From the IMG/VR virus record IMGVR_UViG_3300043449_000947, positions 6,921 through 70,920 of that record: 64,000 nucleotides of DNA. One strand, written 5' to 3'. Positions 6,623 to 22,800 of the stretch are shown piece after piece. Source of the stretch: a virus. A model generated the notes under the pieces. The model saw only the letters and a list, made by a program, of their open reading frames with translations. It was not told where the DNA came from and did not search any database. A program made the position numbers and the translations under genes. Within the stretch, counting starts at the first letter, position 1, and each line of letters starts with the position of its first letter.

Positions 6623-7398
6623 AATATAACAACCCTCCATACAACCGCGATTTTCACTCATACTATAATATGGCATTGCGCCAGTACGATAAACATGAAT
6701 TTGGTGTTCCTACATATCGTGGCGTGTTCTATCACAAGCTTCCTAATAATATTTATGTTGCTTCTTACAACGGCAACAGGATCATGGAGTGGCACCCTAA
6801 CGGTGACATCGTATTTATCTTTTCCGAGAACCACACGCCGTCTGTATCTACACGCATGAGCGTGCTGTTTACCATCTACTCAGTACTCAAGAAAAAAAAT
6901 GCCAGAGGTGATATTCATTACCTCGTATCTATCGGTACTGATGGTAATTCTCATCAGGTAAAAGTCCATAACAGATTAACCGTTCGTGTTTTTGACAGAA
7001 CTATTCAGCTTATTCCTGATGAAATTCCAGAAACTACCAAGGATAACGCTAAGTACAGAGCGTTCAACAAGCAGCTGAAAGAACTCAAAGTTGCTTTGGC
7101 AGCGCAGTGTATGTTCGGTGCCTATAAGCATATAGATTATAGAGGGCAGGCACGTACGCGATTAGCTGATCCATATATATCGCATGAAGCAGCCAAAAAG
7201 AAACTCTATGAGCTTTCGTTAGAATGGATAGAGACTAAAAATCCAAAACTTCTAGAACACGTGGCTACATTTTCGTTCTGTATCTCATCAGGCATTGCTT
7301 GGAACTCGCCCAGTAATCCAGAAGTTCAGAAAAAAGCTGTGCTTAATGCTATGCGTCAAGTGCAGCTGATGTACCTCAGAAGCGAATGCGTGATCTGA
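6610..7398 (+). CDS. hypothetical protein
   Basis: 262-aa ORF overlapping the upstream stop. Confidence 0.7.
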   Translation: MLEVKYNNPPYNRDFHSYYNMALRQYDKHEFGVPTYRGVFYHKLPNNIYVASYNGNRIMEWHPNGDIVFIFSENHTPSVSTRMSVLFTIYSVLKKKNARGDIHYLVSIGTDGNSHQVKVHNRLTVRVFDRTIQLIPDEIPETTKDNAKYRAFNKQLKELKVALAAQCMFGAYKHIDYRGQARTRLADPYISHEAAKKKLYELSLEWIETKNPKLLEHVATFSFCISSGIAWNSPSNPEVQKKAVLNAMRQVQLMYLRSECVI

Positions 7399-9521: not shown

Positions 9522-9718
9522 GTAAATTAGCTTCACTCACTACTCGTCATGGAACCCTCTATCGACATGACGACACTGTTATCGTTATGGAAGACGACGA
9601 TTTATGGGTAACAGTAACTATCTTGGACGGTAGTAGTTCAGTACTAATCGATAGAGAGGAATGGCCAGCTTTTGTTGAAATGGTAGAAGAAATAGATAGA
9701 GCAAGGAAGGATAAATGA
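9518..9718 (+). CDS. hypothetical protein
   Basis: ATGA overlaps at both ends. Confidence 0.6.
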   Translation: MSKLASLTTRHGTLYRHDDTVIVMEDDDLWVTVTILDGSSSVLIDREEWPAFVEMVEEIDRARKDK

Positions 9719-10344
9719 GTGTAAAACTAATCTGGATTACTCCAAACGCAGAAGATCTGATTGCTCACATGGCTCGTGTAAGCAATCCTAAAAATCAAAA
9801 TAGCGAAGACATCGAAGAACTTATCCGCTACATGATGAGACACAAGCATTGGTCACCTTTCGAGATGGCCAATGCAGTCTTTGAGATCAACACGACAAGA
9901 GATATTGCTCGTCAGATCCTTCGTCACAGAAGCTTTTCTTTTCAGGAATTCTCTCAAAGATATGCTTCGATTAAAGAGCTGCCTGCTACGATTCACAGAG
10001 AATGTCGGCTGCAGGGCATAACTAACAGGCAGAGCAGTATCGAGACTAGCAATAGCGACATGGTTTCGCTCTGGTCAGATATTCAGAAGACGGTGCATGA
10101 CATTACTCAAGAAGCATACTTCGCAGCACTTGATGCAGGTATTGCCAAGGAGCAAGCGCGTGCTCTTCTTCCTGAAGGATTGACGCCTACTCGTATGTAC
10201 ATGAACGGTACCATCCGCAGCTGGCTTCACTATCTTGATCTTCGTTGTAAAGAAGATACGCAGAAAGAACATAGGTTAATCGCAGAGCAGATCGCATCAA
10301 TACTTTCTCAGGAGCTCCCTACTATATATGCTGCTAACTCTTGA
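9715..10344 (+). CDS. thyX: flavin-dependent thymidylate synthase
   Basis: HWSPFE, RQILRHRSFSFQEFSQRY, AKEQARALLP, TQKEHR. Confidence 0.95.
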   Translation: MSVKLIWITPNAEDLIAHMARVSNPKNQNSEDIEELIRYMMRHKHWSPFEMANAVFEINTTRDIARQILRHRSFSFQEFSQRYASIKELPATIHRECRLQGITNRQSSIETSNSDMVSLWSDIQKTVHDITQEAYFAALDAGIAKEQARALLPEGLTPTRMYMNGTIRSWLHYLDLRCKEDTQKEHRLIAEQIASILSQELPTIYAANS

Positions 10345-15937: not shown

Positions 15938-16394
15938 TCAGAACCCACGTCTTGCAGGCATGATGCACTGCGACAAGCATGTCTCAAAAATGCTGCTCGA
16001 GAGTGCTCAGATGATCTGCACTACCATTAATCATATTGGTGGTGTATCTCCCTACAAGACTTCGCATCTGAACCATCCTTGTTCTGTATGGGCTAGGGCT
16101 AGTTCAGAAAATCTCAACTGGTTGAGCTACCTAGCCAAGGAGCTCAACAACCAGTACCGCGTTAGATATAACAAGGATCACAACCACAAATCGTGGGAAG
16201 TAATAAAACACGTAATAAAACACAATGAAACACTGATAACAGAAAAGATGCATCACATCGGTCCTACTCCGTTCGTATTGGCCATGCCTGAACAGTACAA
16301 GTGCTCTGATCCTGTACAGGCGTACAGGGCTTATTACAAATCCAAAGAATTCGCTCAGTGGAACAAAGGTGTTCCAACTCCTTACTGGTGGTGA
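15918..16394 (+). CDS. pyrimidine-dimer DNA glycosylase/endonuclease V-like protein
   Basis: MNIFVLD...HCDKHVSKMLLESAQM, H.NHPCSVW, AMPEQYK..DPVQAYRAYY. Confidence 0.85.
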   Translation: MNIFVLDQNPRLAGMMHCDKHVSKMLLESAQMICTTINHIGGVSPYKTSHLNHPCSVWARASSENLNWLSYLAKELNNQYRVRYNKDHNHKSWEVIKHVIKHNETLITEKMHHIGPTPFVLAMPEQYKCSDPVQAYRAYYKSKEFAQWNKGVPTPYWW

Positions 16395-16395
16395 C

Positions 16396-16998
16396 ATGAC
16401 TGGTTCTTTATCTAAACCGTCCAAGATGCCGGGCTTTGGCTACGGCCTACCAGCTCTTACGTCTTGTAAGGTTGGTAGTGAATTGGCTAAAATACCCGGG
16501 TCTGTTTGCAACAAGTGTTACGCGTTAAAGGGACGATATGTAATGCCTGTTGTACAACAGGCCCAAGCTCTTCGTCTTGCGTCCATAGAAGGTCCGAACT
16601 GGGTCGATGATATGGTTAAGCTGATAGGACGCAAACGAGAAAAACATTTTCGCTGGCATGATTCGGGAGACTTAGTCTCCCTTGTTCATTTAGTGAATAT
16701 TGTTTCTATTGCTCGACGCTTACCAGAATTTCTTTTCTGGCTTCCTACAAGAGAACGAAAGATAGTTAATTCATATGAACGTCTTTTCGGTGATTTTCCA
16801 GACAACCTTATCGTGCGTATCAGCGTAGCGATGGTTGATGGCAAACCTCCTCAAACTTCTTTGTGTACATCTACGGTCCATAAGGACAGCGTTCCTATCG
16901 GCTACATGTGTCCCGCTCATCTACAGAACAACAAGTGTGTTTCTTGTCGAGCCTGCTGGGACAAGACAATAAAGAACATTTCTTACTTGGAACACTGA
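16396..16998 (+). CDS. gp88-like Cys-rich (Fe-S/radical-SAM-like) protein
   Basis: SKPSKMPG, C...SVCNKCYA.KG.Y, FRWHDSGD, FWLPTRE, C-terminal CPA...CVSCRACW. Confidence 0.75.
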   Translation: MTGSLSKPSKMPGFGYGLPALTSCKVGSELAKIPGSVCNKCYALKGRYVMPVVQQAQALRLASIEGPNWVDDMVKLIGRKREKHFRWHDSGDLVSLVHLVNIVSIARRLPEFLFWLPTRERKIVNSYERLFGDFPDNLIVRISVAMVDGKPPQTSLCTSTVHKDSVPIGYMCPAHLQNNKCVSCRACWDKTIKNISYLEH

Positions 16999-17058
16999 TG
17001 GAATTGATAGCAGCAGCTGTTGTACTTCTTATCCTTATAGCAACGGTGGATTGTTAGT

Positions 17059-17232
17059 ATGATCGCGAATATCGAAGAAATTTTAGTTAATTCAAGACGT
17101 GCTCTCATAAAAAATCCAACAAATGACGAAGCTAAATCGGCGTTGTCATGGTGTATCTTTAATCTTCTGCAGATTCGAGCAGAAGTCCCAAAAGAGATAG
17201 AACATATAGTCAGAAAATGTTCGCAAGCTTAA
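17059..17232 (+). CDS. small hypothetical protein (57 aa, not in ORF track)
   Basis: ATG 17059 to TAA 17230-17232. Confidence 0.45.
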   Translation: MIANIEEILVNSRRALIKNPTNDEAKSALSWCIFNLLQIRAEVPKEIEHIVRKCSQA

Positions 17233-17469
17233 TGGGCGGCGGAAATCCTTTTAACCAAGGGTTCACAAAACGACTGTCGCCCACCCTTTACGGAGTAGCA
17301 CTGCGTATGACGATACGAAATCCTGTTGCGATGGCGGTATAAAAACCGGACTCGGATTGACGAGTTAAGTCGGGTAGCTACTCCACCCTTTAATGACCCT
17401 CGGCCTTACTTTCTATCTTATTTTTTGGGATGGACAGTTCGATCAAAATCTCCGAGGGTCACCCATTTA
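17233..17469 (+). ncRNA. three tandem stem-closed RNA-like elements, each ending A-CCC(A)TTTA
   Basis: Stems: TGGGCGGCGG/CTGTCGCCCA (17233-42/17274-83), GGAGTAGC/GCTACTCC (17292-99/17367-74), TGACCCTCGG/CCGAGGGTCA (17384-93/17452-61). Each is followed by CCCTTTA or CCCATTTA. Confidence 0.55.
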
Positions 17470-17758
17470 CAGCGCAAAATAGCGAACAGAAGGCCAGAGC
17501 TGCACATCGTAGCGCAATGCAATTAAAGAAAACGCGCTGAGAATTCAGCCAATACAGGCCCATTTATGGGCCTTATTTGGGTGGGTTTTCCCATCAGATG
17601 CAAGATAGTGCAAATACAAGAACCGCAAAACATAGCATCGAAAGCAAGTGAGCTGAGAATTCAGCCAGTGCGAGACTCTCTGAGTCTCCATCTGGGTGAG
17701 CTTTCAATAATTGATTTGCTCCGCCATGCATCGCATCGATAGTAAATTAAATGCAATG
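17470..17758 (+). ncRNA. array of three 5-nt-periodic tracts separated by two conserved hairpins (candidate guide-RNA array)
   Basis: Tracts at 17470-17534, 17596-17650 and 17709-17758, with consensus pentamer [C/A]ANNG. Identical 16-mer GCTGAGAATTCAGCCA at 17536 and 17652. Confidence 0.7.
17536..17705 (+). repeat. two ~55-nt structured repeats (17536-17590, 17652-17705)
   Basis: GCTGAGAATTCAGCCA-RTRC-[variable perfect stem]-YATY-TGGGTGRGYTTTC, spaced 116 nt apart. Confidence 0.85.
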
Positions 17759-17787
17759 TCTTTATCACTTCAACTCAGGAAATCATC

Positions 17788-18384
17788 ATGTCTATTGAAT
17801 CTATTAACGTAAAAATTTCCGGTATCCAACCTCTGCTGATGAGTAATCCGCAGACGGTGGATCGTTTCAATCCCTTTGCTAAAGAGATAGCCAAGATTAA
17901 CGCCAAGAAAACTCGTCGTACTGACGAAGATTACAGGCATCTGGCTGATCTTGAAGTTCGTTCCAAAGTCCATTGGTCTGACGATCATGGCGTGTTCGTT
18001 CCTAGCACTTGGTTGTTAGCAGCTCTGTGCAAGAACGGCTTTAATCTTAAGAAGCTCGCGAAAGATAAGATTCGCGGCTCGGTATTCACTACCGCTCCAA
18101 AGATCAAGCTTAACTACGAAGGACAGGATGTTGTTCAGACGCTTGATGATGTCGTAGGCAATCCTCGCTTTCGTTATCAGATGAACGTGAAGCAAGGACA
18201 GGTACGCATCATGAAGTCCATGCCTATCTTCAAAGACTGGTCTTTTGAGACTGAACTTGAATTTGAAAACACTCAGATCGATCCATCTGACCTCAAGGCT
18301 TTGCTTGAATACTCGGCCAAGTACGGTGGTTTCGGTGACTTCCGTCCTACCTTCGGTCGTTCTGTTGCAGAGGTAACCATCTGA
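17788..18384 (+). CDS. stand-alone Cas7/RAMP-like RNA-binding protein
   Basis: N-terminal strand INVKISGIQPLLM; VFVPSTWLLAAL at the position of the RAMP IPGSSLKGAL motif; W.F..ELEF strand; C-terminal Gly loop YGGFGDFRPTFGR. AGGA RBS. Confidence 0.75.
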   Translation: MSIESINVKISGIQPLLMSNPQTVDRFNPFAKEIAKINAKKTRRTDEDYRHLADLEVRSKVHWSDDHGVFVPSTWLLAALCKNGFNLKKLAKDKIRGSVFTTAPKIKLNYEGQDVVQTLDDVVGNPRFRYQMNVKQGQVRIMKSMPIFKDWSFETELEFENTQIDPSDLKALLEYSAKYGGFGDFRPTFGRSVAEVTI

Positions 18385-18812
18385 TGAAAACTAGAGAAGA
18401 CATCGTCTCTTGGTTCAGAGCAAATAAACTGGACCAGTATGGAGCTGTAATCAGAAGAACAGACATCCTTTCATTTGCCGATATAGAGGTTCCCGCAGTC
18501 GGTACGATGAAGGAGTTCGAACAGATTGCTCTGCTTGAAGTAGGTATCACTCAGTATCTGCGTGATCTTCTACTCAAGGAGGGCAAATACCTGAAAAAAG
18601 ATGGAGACTTCTATAGAATTCTCCTTCCATCCCAAAACCTTCAGCAGATCCAGTCGTACATGCGCTCCGCAGATAAGAAGCTACGTAGAGCTCGTATATT
18701 GAGCGTCAACACTCCTGTGCAGCATCAAGACATCGCTGACAATCTTAAGGTGCGCATTCACATGAAAGAACAGTCGACACGCCATGCACGTGCATACGGT
18801 CATGCTGTTTAA
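18384..18812 (+). CDS. hypothetical protein translationally coupled to the RAMP-like gene
   Basis: TGATG stop/start overlap. Basic helical C-terminus. Confidence 0.75.
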   Translation: MKTREDIVSWFRANKLDQYGAVIRRTDILSFADIEVPAVGTMKEFEQIALLEVGITQYLRDLLLKEGKYLKKDGDFYRILLPSQNLQQIQSYMRSADKKLRRARILSVNTPVQHQDIADNLKVRIHMKEQSTRHARAYGHAV

Positions 18813-19254: not shown

Positions 19255-19456
19255 AGAAGAGAACTGGGTCATCATAAACACAGGCTGGAACGAAGGTATA
19301 GCGCTGCCGTTCTCAGACTTTGCAACCATGGCTGATCGTCTGATCCATGTCGGCGTCGACAATGACGCCATCACCGTCAAAGACGCTCTCAAGTTCACTC
19401 TCGTAAGAGGTGAAGTCATCAACGCTGCCCGCGTAAGGGCCAGAATCACCCAGTAG
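19247..19456 (+). CDS. hypothetical protein
   Basis: Last ORF of the + arm before the terminator. Confidence 0.6.
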   Translation: MNEEENWVIINTGWNEGIALPFSDFATMADRLIHVGVDNDAITVKDALKFTLVRGEVINAARVRARITQ

Positions 19457-19469
19457 GGTGATTTTTTTT
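19444..19469 (+). terminator. rho-independent terminator ending the + arm
   Basis: AATCACCC-AGTA-GGGTGATT followed by a T run. Confidence 0.8.
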
Positions 19470-19514
19470 GCTCAAAGAGCTGCGAATAGCCCCTTTTTCT
19501 GCTGTCTTTGAAAA

Positions 19515-19830
19515 AACCACAACAGACCTAACACACCCGAAATCGCTAAAAAGTGTTGTGATGTTGTGATTTTCAGCTGGCGAAAATAAGAATCACAACA
19601 GAATCACAACACCCTCAAACCCTTACCATCTCTAGCTTTCTTATATATTTGTTGTATGTTGTACTTTTTTTAGCTTACTCACTATAGAAATACAAAAATG
19701 TAAAAAAATAGAAAAAATGTTTTTCTATATATGACTTAGCGAGTGAAAAAACCCCAACTTCACAACAAGCCATGTCGGGCCTGCTCTAGCGACTGTTGGG
19801 GTCCGTTTTAGAAACTACAACTTCACAACA
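19515..19830. repeat. ACAAC/GTTGT iteron-like repeats around an AT-rich core (candidate replication origin)
   Basis: About 10 copies in both orientations, mostly as tandem pairs. AT-rich core at ~19640-19735. Confidence 0.6.
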
Positions 19831-22800
19831 CTACAGCCATTGATCGTACAGCTTGTATGCTGGTAACGCTTCCACGATCCACTTGTGCATTGACTCCGGA
19901 TCATCACTGCCTACAGCCTTGAGTCCTTTACGCATCTGTCCCAGTGTAGGACCTGCGAAGCTTTCGTACCCACCACCGCCCCAATCAACATCCTGCTGCG
20001 AGTCGATGAAGAACTGACCTACACCGGTCAGACCTGACCGTTCTACGCCTCTCTTCATGTAATCGACTGCACCCCAGTCTTTCTTATAAGGTGGTTCCTC
20101 ACCTGAATTGGCGATCATGTCCTTCGCAAAGTCTGCAGCAATCATTCCCGGCACATACAGAGAAGCGATTAAAACCGGTTTGAAGTTGCCATGCGACATC
20201 TCGTGTGTCAGACGATCGATGATTACCGCCTGAAAGCTCCACACGAACTGTTTAAGGTGCGAAATGAGTGCGAGGTAGGGGTTACTAGCCCATGCAGGCA
20301 ATTCGGCGCTAGAGGGGTTCAGGAGGCTCTGGTGGACTATCTTCTCCATAGCGTTCCTCAACTTGGCTTCCGTGGCCTTAGCCTGCTTCATAGTCATCTT
20401 CGGATTCAGCGCCTTGATTTCATCAGCCGTAAGCGCTAACCGGTCCAGATTTTCATCAAACATGATGTCTGGTTTTTCTAGCCCCAGCTCCTCCAGATAA
20501 CGAGCACTCTGCTCCTTACCAAAGAAGTCTTCAGAACTTCTTTGCAGGAAGGTATTCGCCGCTCTGACTGCCATGATGGTGTTGTTACGTATCCATCCAC
20601 TCAGCAGGTTAACTTTGAAGAACTTGTCGTTGATATCCTTCAATTTGCCTGACATGGTGATGCCGTCATAGCGGTTGTAGGCGTTGATCACCGTACCTGA
20701 GTCAGCGATGATGCCCCAGTCCTGAGCGATCTGCTCCCACTGATCTCGTGTGTACTCTCCATGCCACTCCTTGAACATGTTCTTCAACGAGTAGGTAAAG
20801 GCGTCCCACCCAGCCGTCACGCTGTTAGTGCGGATAGCGATGCCCAGCGGATCAACGAGCGACGAGAAGATAGCCAGAGGTAGGAGACGGATATTCTGGT
20901 AAGTAGTCATCACTCCCATCAGATCCTTCATCTCTCTACTCATACCAATTTCCTTGTTGCCCATCAGGCCATCAAGATAATTCTTGGCTAGAGCCAGATC
21001 GTCTGGCGTAGCGCCGTAACGATCCTGCGCTTCTTTGATCAGTGCGTTGAATTTCTTACCACCGTTACCGAAAGTGCGTACGAATTCAGCCTGACGTACT
21101 GCCTGCTTGATGTAGCGCGTGGCGGTATGTACTGGATCATCCTCCATGAACTTGCGGCGATCGGCTGCGTCGAGAAAGCCCAGAGTACGCGTGCGAGTAT
21201 GAGCAGCCATGGGCTCATTTTCATCACCCATGACGTTAACCAGATCTTCTCCTCTCTCCAGATAAGAGACGATGGAGTTATAGAGCTCATCCGGAGTCTT
21301 CATCAGCGTATCCATGTACTGCTTGTACTTGGGCTGATTGAGCATCTTGAGAAAACCTTCCTTGTCTGCAGCCACCTTCTCCGGATCGAAAGCTAGCGGG
21401 TAGTAGTTCTTGATCTCTCCAAGAATCACACCTGCGTCTTTCTGGTACGCCAGCACTTGGCTGTAGAACGTACGCAGCGCCTTGGCTCTGTTTGCTACGA
21501 GCGGATCGTTTGTAGGAATGCGCCCAGCAATCAGTGCATCGTGTACTGCCAGCTGCTGTTCTTCAGTCAAGTCGCCCAGAATCTTGCTGATTCTGTTCTG
21601 AAACGCTTGCGTCTCGTTACGCATGCGCTGAACCATACCGCTTTCGTTCCCATCCATACCTGTAGCCTGATAGCCCAGCTGAGCTATACGGGCTAGAGGA
21701 GGGATGGTTGAGTTATTCAGACGGTTGTACACCGAGGTGAAGATCACATCGTAGAGTTTCTCCAGAGCTAACAGAGCGTCCTTACCGACTTTGAGAGCCT
21801 TCTCTCCAGAGGTCATATTCCTGTCCAACACCCTCTGCAATGGAGTGGCTCCTCGCTTGGCTCTTTCACCACTAGCGAAGTCCTGCATGATCATCTCAGC
21901 CTTCATGTTGTTGTCCATGATGCTGAGGATGCTGTAGATCCAGTCTTTGATCTTCTGAAAGAGCCCTTCAGTCTTCGGACCTACCTTCAGTATCGAAGGA
22001 TCAGCTACCCACAACTGAAAACCATAAGCTGCAGCCTCTTCACCATTCTCCAACTGCTTCAGAACAGCCTTGTCGTTCTTGAAGTAATCGCGCAGCTTCT
22101 TAGCTACCGGTCCTTGTGTGAAGGCAGTAGCCAGAATCCTTCTTTCATCAGTGCTGAAGAAGAACTGGAAGGCAGCATGAACTGGTTCATGATCAGCTAA
22201 CGCGATGTTTTTCTCCGCACCCGCAGCCAGCTTGATTACACCGAGCAGTGCCTGATCTTTGGTAAGCCGCTCTTCTTCATTAAGCAGGCGATCGATCCCT
22301 GCCTTAAGCTGAGCGTCAGTTAGCTTGGATTCACGATCTTCAGGTTTCTGTTTGAGTTCTTTTACAAGATTTCTTCTTTCGTTAGTTACGTTTTCTATCG
22401 CTTCCTTGATATTGACGTACTCACCTTTAGCCTGATTCTCGAGCACTTGCTCGAACTGCACGGCTACTCTATGTCCTAGCAGTTTTTCTACTCTGGCAAT
22501 GAAAGCCTTCTGAGCTTTGCTGTACTCCCACGGCCCTTTTTTCGAACCCTTTTTAGGAGACTTCGGAGGCTTTGGAGGTTCGTTACCGAATAGATCAGTA
22601 GGCTCACCCCCACCGGGAGGAGCTTCCTCTCCCTCTTCTTCTCCTTCTCCCTGCTCTCCAAAGAGATTAGTAGGCTCACCTCCTCCGGGAGGAGCTTGTT
22701 CATTCTGATCGTTTGCTGCAGCCAGACTATCTACCCACTGTTTGAAAGTAGTAGATGGCTGCATCACCGCGATCACGTCATCAAAGAACTGCCGCATCTT

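Follow-up and report, generated by a model that had tools for sequence, protein, structure and literature searches.

What keeps two neighbouring hairpins of a phage genome in the same long shape when their inner stems have been exchanged completely? The question is raised by a stretch of viral DNA of 64,000 nucleotides (nt; IMG/VR record IMGVR_UViG_3300043449_000947, positions 6,921 to 70,920), which was analysed as a whole and is called the window here. The two hairpin units (17536-17590 and 17652-17705) lie within 17233-17787, a gap of 555 nt that contains no convincing open reading frame (ORF), upstream of a gene encoding a protein of 198 amino acids (aa). A preliminary description had interpreted the units as RNA structures under selection whose role is that of a processing site or of a handle capping a protein filament, and this interpretation was supported in substance. 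The locus is very probably a VIPR system, type II-like, with the hairpins as structured 3' tails of its guide RNAs (vrRNAs), because a homologue of the Vipr protein of Escherichia phage SUSP1, a vap1-like gene and pentamer arrays with tails are found together, and because the units follow a conserved end-of-array motif that resembles the motif of related loci.

Both units were recovered letter for letter. They are 54-55 nt long, and their central 20 nt are completely different from each other, in agreement with the earlier statement that, unlike a CRISPR repeat, the element is conserved in structure and not in full sequence. As inverted repeats they have 25-nt arms of 72% complementarity with loops of 2 nt (unit 1) and 3 nt (unit 2). 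The common 5' part reaches upstream of the units and forms a direct repeat of 27 nt with 85% identity. With a seed of 8, unit 1 was the longest of 9 local inverted repeats in the window; unit 2 has the same size and was not in this list because its seed is only 7 bp.

Folding of the + strand as RNA gave the long hairpin in both units, as had been claimed, with energies (Table 1) that were reached by 0 of 200 shuffled sequences for unit 1 and 1 of 200 for unit 2. Twenty base pairs were read from the fold of unit 1 and 22 from that of unit 2, including 3 and 2 G-U wobbles, respectively. The - strand folds were weaker (-23.0 and -21.0 kcal/mol, i.e. 5-6 kcal/mol worse), which agrees with the earlier argument that the wobbles favour + strand RNA. 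In unit 1, the apical stem AGGCCCA(T)/(A)TGGGCCT is flanked by the outer arms GAGAATTCA-G-CCAA and TTGG-G-TGGGTTTTC; in unit 2, the 5' arm is unchanged, the apical stem reads GAGACTC/GAGTCTC and TGGGTGAGCTTTC forms the 3' arm. Candidate partners in the outer arms of the long hairpin are GAGAATTCAGCCA and TGGGTGRGYTTTC. Complementarity is the only feature that the apical stems (AGGCCCAT/ATGGGCCT in unit 1) have in common, so that 7-8 bp are fully swapped by compensatory change, just as noted before. The compensatory change is complete only in this stem and in its 3-bp flank. For the flank (ATA/TAT versus GTG/CAT) the covariation proposed earlier was thus found in the letters, but in the minimum-energy fold of unit 1 the flank is left as an internal loop.

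VIPR has been described as a CRISPR-related, RNA-guided DNA-silencing system that consists of an ancestral RAMP protein of ~20 kDa (Vipr), vrRNAs and an accessory vap gene (10.64898/2026.04.26.720920). According to the same preprint, a vrRNA comprises 9-16 YNNGG repeats and then a conserved structured 3' tail, which is a pseudoknot in the SUSP1 clade; it co-purifies with Vipr and recognises double-stranded DNA through its NN dinucleotides, skipping one nucleotide. A Vipr protein is characterised by one RRM core, a G-loop and a thumb, and vrRNAs of VIPR systems are discrete RNAs of about 100 nt. A preprint on electron cryo-microscopy reports one Vipr protomer per repeat and a SUSP1 pseudoknot serving as a cap at the 3' end, with the nearby subunits always resolved (10.64898/2026.04.26.720927). 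In a further preprint the shared consensus tail is treated as making the vrRNA competent for Vipr complex formation (10.64898/2026.10.15.759431). A capping handle on the protein filament, as proposed earlier, is therefore what these preprints report as the role of the equivalent element of SUSP1, the model VIPR system; for the present phage this role would follow by homology. The components of such a system are present in the window: a small RAMP protein of the Vipr kind, three guide tracts (Table 1), a predicted tail after arrays 1 and 2, and a vap1-like gene.

The 198-aa product matched phrog_4652 (function unknown; E 1.2e-56) and no Pfam family. Of 1026 candidates from a database search, 847 were relatives at E <= 0.001, and the 120 relatives listed had neither a Pfam domain nor an informative name. 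The relatives with 63-79% identity were proteins P0002-P0015 of this search, and scans of viral, metagenome and genome collections guided by the protein reached at most 60% identity. An AlphaFold2 model was calculated from 56 sequences (pLDDT 91.0). A Foldseek search against the PDB yielded 66 matches at E <= 0.001, and those listed were all CRISPR RAMPs (type VII Cas7, Csm3, Cmr6, Cas7-11); the best match was type VII Cas7 (E 3.8e-6, probability 1.0, TM 0.54). By its predicted fold, the protein is a Cas7-like RAMP, and the RAMP protein that had been postulated beside the arrays is present. It is homologous to SUSP1 Vipr (33% identity and E 5e-31 in a pairwise BLASTP comparison; E 2.8e-26 by tblastn in the SUSP1 record), and tblastn located relatives in 130 phage records, mostly Felix O1-like phages of enterobacteria.

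The residues reported as important in SUSP1 Vipr are D177, W178 and R179 of the G-loop, R138 of the thumb, which contacts G2, and E71, which shapes the pyrimidine pocket (10.64898/2026.04.26.720927). In the BLASTP alignment the G-loops (GDF/WRP.FGR) were aligned, with D177, W178 and R179 at the positions of D184, F185 and R186 of the window protein. R138 aligned with M145, and E71 with W75. Only from this alignment do we infer that the M145 and W75 substitutions would fit the changed triplet described below (G-M-A for GGY).

The 142-aa product of the next gene was 32-44% identical to ORFs directly 3' of vipr in 17 related loci. A profile comparison with the gene downstream of SUSP1 vipr gave an hhalign probability of 88% (E 3.2e-6, 107 columns), and a BLASTP comparison with the VpaE1 counterpart found nothing. 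Since the gene is conserved beside vipr and matches the SUSP1 downstream gene, the locus has a type II-like gene pair. The AlphaFold2 model of the product (pLDDT 85.8) had no fold match at E <= 0.001; its weak matches to winged-helix regulators (best E 0.047) only weakly suggest a DNA-binding fold.

Three stretches of the gap were found to be periodic at 5 nt and at no other length. The signal of array 1 was accompanied by none at periods 3, 4, 6, 7 and 8, and array 3 was the strongest period-5 tile of the whole window (tile z 5.7). Arranged in the register triplet plus NN, the 37 pentamers of the window had G in column 1 (23/37, 62%), A or C in column 2 (33/37, 89%) and A in column 3 (26/37, 70%); columns 4 and 5 were variable. 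The last three pentamers of array 1 (TAAAG AAAAC GCGCT), which continue into the tail, and of array 2 (GAAAG CAAGT GAGCT) are conserved between the two arrays. The relatives use the code G-M-A (M, A or C) plus NN: among 638 pentamers of 58 arrays, column 1 was G in 516 (81%), column 2 was C in 324 and A in 235 (88% together) and column 3 was A in 440 (69%), the exact triplets including 228 GCA and 102 GAA. The arrays of the window are a more degenerate version of this code. Other period-5 tiles of the window were located at 9681-9740, 16201-16260 and 19671-19750; two of these three were read and were purine- or A-rich, without tails.

Non-canonical repeats are already on record. Alternative repeats NNNGG, YNNNG and NNNNG are given in the Methods of 10.64898/2026.04.26.720920, and GAC/NN, CAC/NN, WGT/NN and TGH/NN, with 21 clusters, in 10.64898/2026.10.21.760802. 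As far as they are described there, such arrays share with the window the 5-nt period, a fixed triplet other than GGY and the position beside a Vipr-like fold. Neither GCA nor GMA is named in the running text of these two preprints; their repeat logos are placed in figures and supplements outside that text, so the triplet type of the window may already be catalogued, for example as YNNNG. In four related loci (L005, L028, L031, L195), whole guide tracts were nearly without a fixed triplet and the tails were intact, in line with the "internal degeneracy" to which the Methods of 10.64898/2026.04.26.720920 refer.

Since the two copies of the window alone show a swap of 7-8 pairs and little else, the principle was tested in relatives. 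The flanks of vipr genes were read in three annotated phages and 38 metagenomic loci, the loci of the G-M-A clade being taken from IMG/VR, JGI metagenomes and metagenome-assembled genomes. In most of them an array of eight to sixteen fixed-triplet pentamers lies beside the gene; after it come a conserved motif, a hairpin and, in the usual case, another small hairpin. A tail was present after every array, including the last one, and absent before the first array; the hairpin is therefore part of each guide's 3' end. The Felix O1-like phages have GGT as their triplet, and their arrays are each closed by a pseudoknot-like element, the two stems of which covary between units. The end motif of the window, AAAG.AA..G.G (AAAGAAAACGCG, AAAGCAAGTGAG), resembles AAAGCAACGCGG of the relatives.

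A covariance model was built from nine tails of relatives and searched in 66 sources. It gave 74 matches at E <= 0.01 in 25 of the 66 sources, all on the vipr strand. In the alignment of these 74 tails, whose counts lean towards the structure and are not independent because the alignment was fitted to the model structure and several loci are close relatives or near-duplicates, 92.2% of the cells could pair, compared with 70.0 +/- 1.0 in shuffles and 16-52% in slid controls. Both sides had changed in 14 of 15 pairs, and double-change cells numbered 200 versus 66.8 +/- 6.0 after shuffling. About 77 G-U cells (sum over the per-pair table) fit an RNA on the vipr strand. Between tails of one array, identity was 52% in the stem columns as against 89% in the anchor columns (120 pairs from 15 loci). 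The 3' small hairpin had 98.6% of its cells paired and changes on both sides in 5 of 5 pairs. A private apical stem in a shared frame is thus the rule in the G-M-A clade, and the covariation among homologous loci that the preliminary description had called for was found.

The G-M-A clade has the repeat code, the gene pair (Vipr 44-60% identical) and the end-of-array motif in common with the window, and in both the stem sequence is free and pairing and flanks are kept. The tails of the clade consist of AAGCAACGCGG, a variable hairpin and GGGTC-GTTT-GACCC. In the window, by contrast, GCTGAGAATTCAGCCA is inserted before the variable hairpin, and the 3' element TGGGTGRGYTTTC can pair with this insert to give one long hairpin. 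The same 3' element resembles the second hairpin of the relatives, e.g. GGTGG-GCTTA-CCACC in the locus with the nearest Vipr retrieved (L183, 60% identical).

Besides the model-fitted covariation alignment, several observations weigh against the assignment of the units as vrRNA tails. The tail model of the relatives did not match the window even at E <= 1, so that homology between the window tails and those of the relatives rests on position and short motifs only. No covariation was found in the outer stem: its two 5' arms have the same sequence, and of the two differences between the 3' arms one changes U-G to U-A and the other A-U to an A-C mismatch that breaks a pair. Selection on shape is supported by the covariation in the related tails and by the stems that differ within one array; covariation gives no support to the pairing of the outer arms. 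The fixed triplet of the window is degenerate (exact G-M-A in 14 of 37 pentamers). Neither a conserved end motif nor a tail hairpin accompanies array 3, which extends into the vipr ribosome-binding region and may represent a decayed guide, a tail-less guide or a part of the 5' untranslated region.

Searches for further copies and for targets count on the same side. The 15-mer GCTGAGAATTCAGCC occurs exactly twice in the record of 70,920 bases. A scan of IMG/VR with the exact 15-mer gave at least 119 loci, and among the matches listed none had the 3' arm or a similar context; a scan with a gapped pattern of both arms gave 12 loci, none of them hairpin-like or beside a vipr gene. The two known copies of the exact tail type of the window thus remained without a third in the IMG/VR scans. 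Exact targets of 10 NN under the one-nucleotide-skip rule gave 0 matches for the three arrays in IMG/VR viral contigs (an exact match was required, and published searches allow 80% NN), and a target of array 1 within the window gave 0 matches under the same rule with <=3 mismatches. The listed sequencing runs that contain the phage are DNA only, from freshwater and riverine metagenomes, one of which is probably the source sample.

The alternative that survives best concerns the shape of the tail. It takes the true tail to be three small hairpins (GCTGA-GAAT-TCAGC, the variable hairpin and a 3' hairpin GGTGGG-TTTT-CCCATC), corresponding to the two-hairpin tails of the relatives, with the outer-arm complementarity as a secondary feature. 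For unit 1 this fold was only 1.8 kcal/mol worse than the long hairpin, and it was adopted by unit 1 when 558 nt were folded together, which counts against a single long hairpin. The small hairpin of L183 stands at the same place, and the 3' small hairpin of the relatives covaries, as described above. In unit 2, however, the 3' small hairpin cannot form; its alternative costs 7.6 kcal/mol, and the long hairpin was kept in the 558-nt fold. In the local context the long hairpin had a probability of about 0.88 in unit 1 and about 0.99 in unit 2, and the alternative 5' pairing GCTGA-GAAT-TCAGC, which had been pointed out before, made up about 11% of the unit 1 ensemble and about 0% of that of unit 2. 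Three separate hairpins are a possible tail that we consider unlikely.

A second alternative accepts the long hairpin and takes it mainly as a cleavage site: a single precursor would be cut in the hairpins by an RNase III-like host enzyme, and the mature vrRNAs would carry half-hairpins and no intact cap. RNase III needs a helix of about 20-22 bp. The helices of the window have this length; they are, however, broken by bulges and a 3x3 loop, and most tails of the relatives (10 model pairs, then a 5-bp hairpin) are too short for the enzyme. A scan for sigma-70-like promoters found none on the + strand, including the sequence inside and between the units, which fits a single precursor. Arrays also do need a processing device, since hammerhead ribozymes are reported between the vrRNAs of other VIPR types, and for type II arrays neither an RNase nor a pathway of maturation is named in the available text of the same preprint (10.64898/2026.04.26.720920). 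Against cleavage, an intact pseudoknot is reported on the mature SUSP1 complex (10.64898/2026.04.26.720927). On balance we regard a role mainly in cleavage as rather improbable.

It is very improbable that the hairpins are intrinsic terminators or insulators between independently transcribed small RNAs and not protein-bound handles. The stems are GC-rich and are followed by U-containing stretches (TATTT, GGGTTTTC), and several relatives have a terminator-like hairpin and T-run after the last tail. The U-runs of the window, however, lie inside the 3' arm and not after the stem, with only two T in the eight bases after the apical stem of unit 2. A consensus scan of 16900-18000 for a GC-rich stem directly before a U-tract found four sites, all on the - strand, which is gene-free there, and none on the + strand.

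A CRISPR array has near-identical repeats of 23-47 nt, unique spacers and adaptation genes; here, units of 54-55 nt are separated by a pentamer array, and the genes of the locus are vipr and the vap1-like gene only. That the units act at the DNA level, as a mini-CRISPR (55-nt repeats, 61-nt spacers), a palindromic mobile element or origin palindromes that bind protein, as two direct copies 116 nt apart beside a RAMP gene might suggest, can hardly be maintained, as the copies are fully different in the middle, the DNA between them is a 5-nt-period array and not a unique spacer, the G-U pairs favour the + strand by 5-6 kcal/mol, 74 of 74 related tails are on the vipr strand, and the genome holds two copies only, without an Rfam match at gathering score.

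The features of the locus are compiled in Table 1; all are on the + strand, in the order given.

Table 1. Features of the VIPR-like locus in the window, with predicted folds of the + strand as RNA and period-5 signals of the arrays.
Feature	Position	Strand	Description
Leader hairpin	17394..17461	+	Directly 5' of array 1; inverted repeat with a 10-bp outer stem TGACCCTCGG/CCGAGGGTCA around an inner U-rich hairpin
Repeat array 1 (vrRNA guide tract)	17469..17538	+	14 pentamers, triplet + NN; period-5 z 5.83
Tail hairpin 1 (unit 1)	17536..17590	+	Long hairpin, -28.4 kcal/mol, z -4.37
Repeat array 2 (vrRNA guide tract)	17595..17654	+	12 pentamers; period-5 z 2.34
Tail hairpin 2 (unit 2)	17652..17705	+	Long hairpin, -27.2 kcal/mol, z -3.74
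Repeat array 3	17713..17767	+	11 pentamers; period-5 z 5.12
vipr	17788..18384	+	198-aa single-domain RAMP (Cas7-like), G-loop GFGDFRPTFGR
vap1-like accessory gene	18384..18812	+	142 aa; overlaps the vipr stop codon

When 17233-17790 was folded, the centroid structure retained the leader hairpin, which has no sequence relation to either tail and is not preceded by a repeat array. The first third of the gap (17233-17393) was predicted to be highly structured, e.g. with the stem GGGCGGCGG...CUGUCGCCC, and 17233-17400 gave no period-5 signal (z 0.75). The decamer CCACCCTTTA occurs twice in the gap, at 17281 and 17383. An Rfam search of the window gave 0 matches at gathering score, with sub-threshold rows only in 17150-17850 (best E 0.39); a tRNA scan found none. 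The region gave no match when the phage collection was searched at nucleotide level for near and distant sequences. A second DNA run covers 17721-18090 and a short piece near 18310-18356, with the hairpins outside.

The window belongs to the genome of a freshwater phage of roughly 71 kb (virus record length 70,920 bases). Genes for DNA polymerase, helicase and other early functions are located on the + strand up to about 19.4 kb, and genes for portal, major head, tail-fibre and a 2471-aa virion protein on the - strand. Between these convergent blocks, 19456-19831 contains several copies of a CACAAC-containing motif (AATCACAAC, ACTTCACAAC) and A/T-rich runs, and a hairpin-plus-T-run is present at 19450-19470; this intergenic region is probably a terminator and regulatory region. 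Downstream of the vap1-like gene the window has small ORFs, and no array was seen there. In relatives, weaker matches of the tail model (E 0.003-0.73) were located 3' of the vap-like gene (L019, 1578-1863; L020, 2601-2731; L184, 2785-2950), which suggests from sequence a second array downstream of this gene in some relatives, as in SUSP1. A terminator-like hairpin with a T-run between the last tail and the start of vipr was found in many relatives (L004, L005, L019, L022, L023 and L028); the window has none.

Compared with the type II VIPR system of SUSP1 (Vipr, Vap1 and four vrRNAs), the window has a homologous small single-domain RAMP with an accessory gene directly downstream, tandem pentamers of a fixed triplet plus NN, tracts that are each followed by a structured element, arrays of more than one vrRNA on the strand of the gene, and a phage-borne locus among replication genes. 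It differs in the triplet (G-M-A and degenerate, versus GGY in SUSP1), in the tail (a predicted 20-22 bp hairpin with an individual apical stem, versus a pseudoknot of roughly 40 nt described as invariable in the preprint text) and in the placement of the arrays, which are all upstream of vipr in the window, whereas SUSP1 has one upstream and three downstream. SUSP1 has been studied at the bench, whereas the window locus is known from sequence alone. Class 1 CRISPR-Cas handles and Cas6 hairpins are comparable in that a RAMP filament on a guide is bounded by a structured, repeat-derived element between successive guides. In class 1 CRISPR-Cas, however, the repeats are sequence-conserved within an array and the guide is contiguous, whereas the window has a gapped pentamer code and an apical stem that differs between neighbours; unlike class 1 systems, it also has no Cas6, Cas5, Cas1 or Cas2, the locus consisting of vipr and the vap1-like gene only.

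With the units assigned as vrRNA tails, the following mechanism may be proposed. The arrays would be transcribed as vrRNAs, and each pentamer would be bound by one Vipr protomer, which would grip the fixed triplet G-M-A and leave the NN dinucleotides exposed to read double-stranded DNA. Units 1 and 2 would form the structured 3' tails of vrRNA 1 and vrRNA 2, after the conserved last pentamers, and the irregular hairpin of 20-22 bp would stand in place of the SUSP1 pseudoknot with a putative capping role, assigned in this phage by homology only. The outer part, which is conserved in sequence, is a candidate for a protein contact or for a signature of the clade. For the apical stem, pairing alone would be required, and therefore each tail would have its own stem sequence; individual stems may in turn limit mispairing and recombination between tandem units. 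By homology, two (perhaps three) vrRNAs would guide Vipr filaments to competitor DNA.

As a speculation that we hold with little confidence, the locus might represent a VIPR sub-lineage in which the tail is a single long hairpin of two modules. A clade-specific outer helix would be recognised by its shape, by Vipr or by host RNase III, and a private apical stem for each guide would be kept different, which would let guides in tandem fold independently of one another and prevent their recombination; the relaxed G-M-A triplet would be read by an altered pocket (thumb Arg to Met, Glu to Trp). If true, this would be a second, shape-based solution for the capping and processing of VIPR guides.

The kind of system is known from the 2026 preprints; this locus adds a non-canonical triplet and an unusual tail, and the picture of how VIPR works is unchanged by it. 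Among RNA-guided systems VIPR is very new, and only its SUSP1 and P. fulva clades have been studied at the bench. The locus and its relatives could be used for annotating loci for which no Pfam or Rfam model exists, for the design of minimal tails in vrRNA engineering, and for the question of how arrays become single guides. Together they indicate that a G-M-A triplet can replace GGY, and that the end-piece of a guide is selected for shape and not for sequence, even between neighbouring guides.

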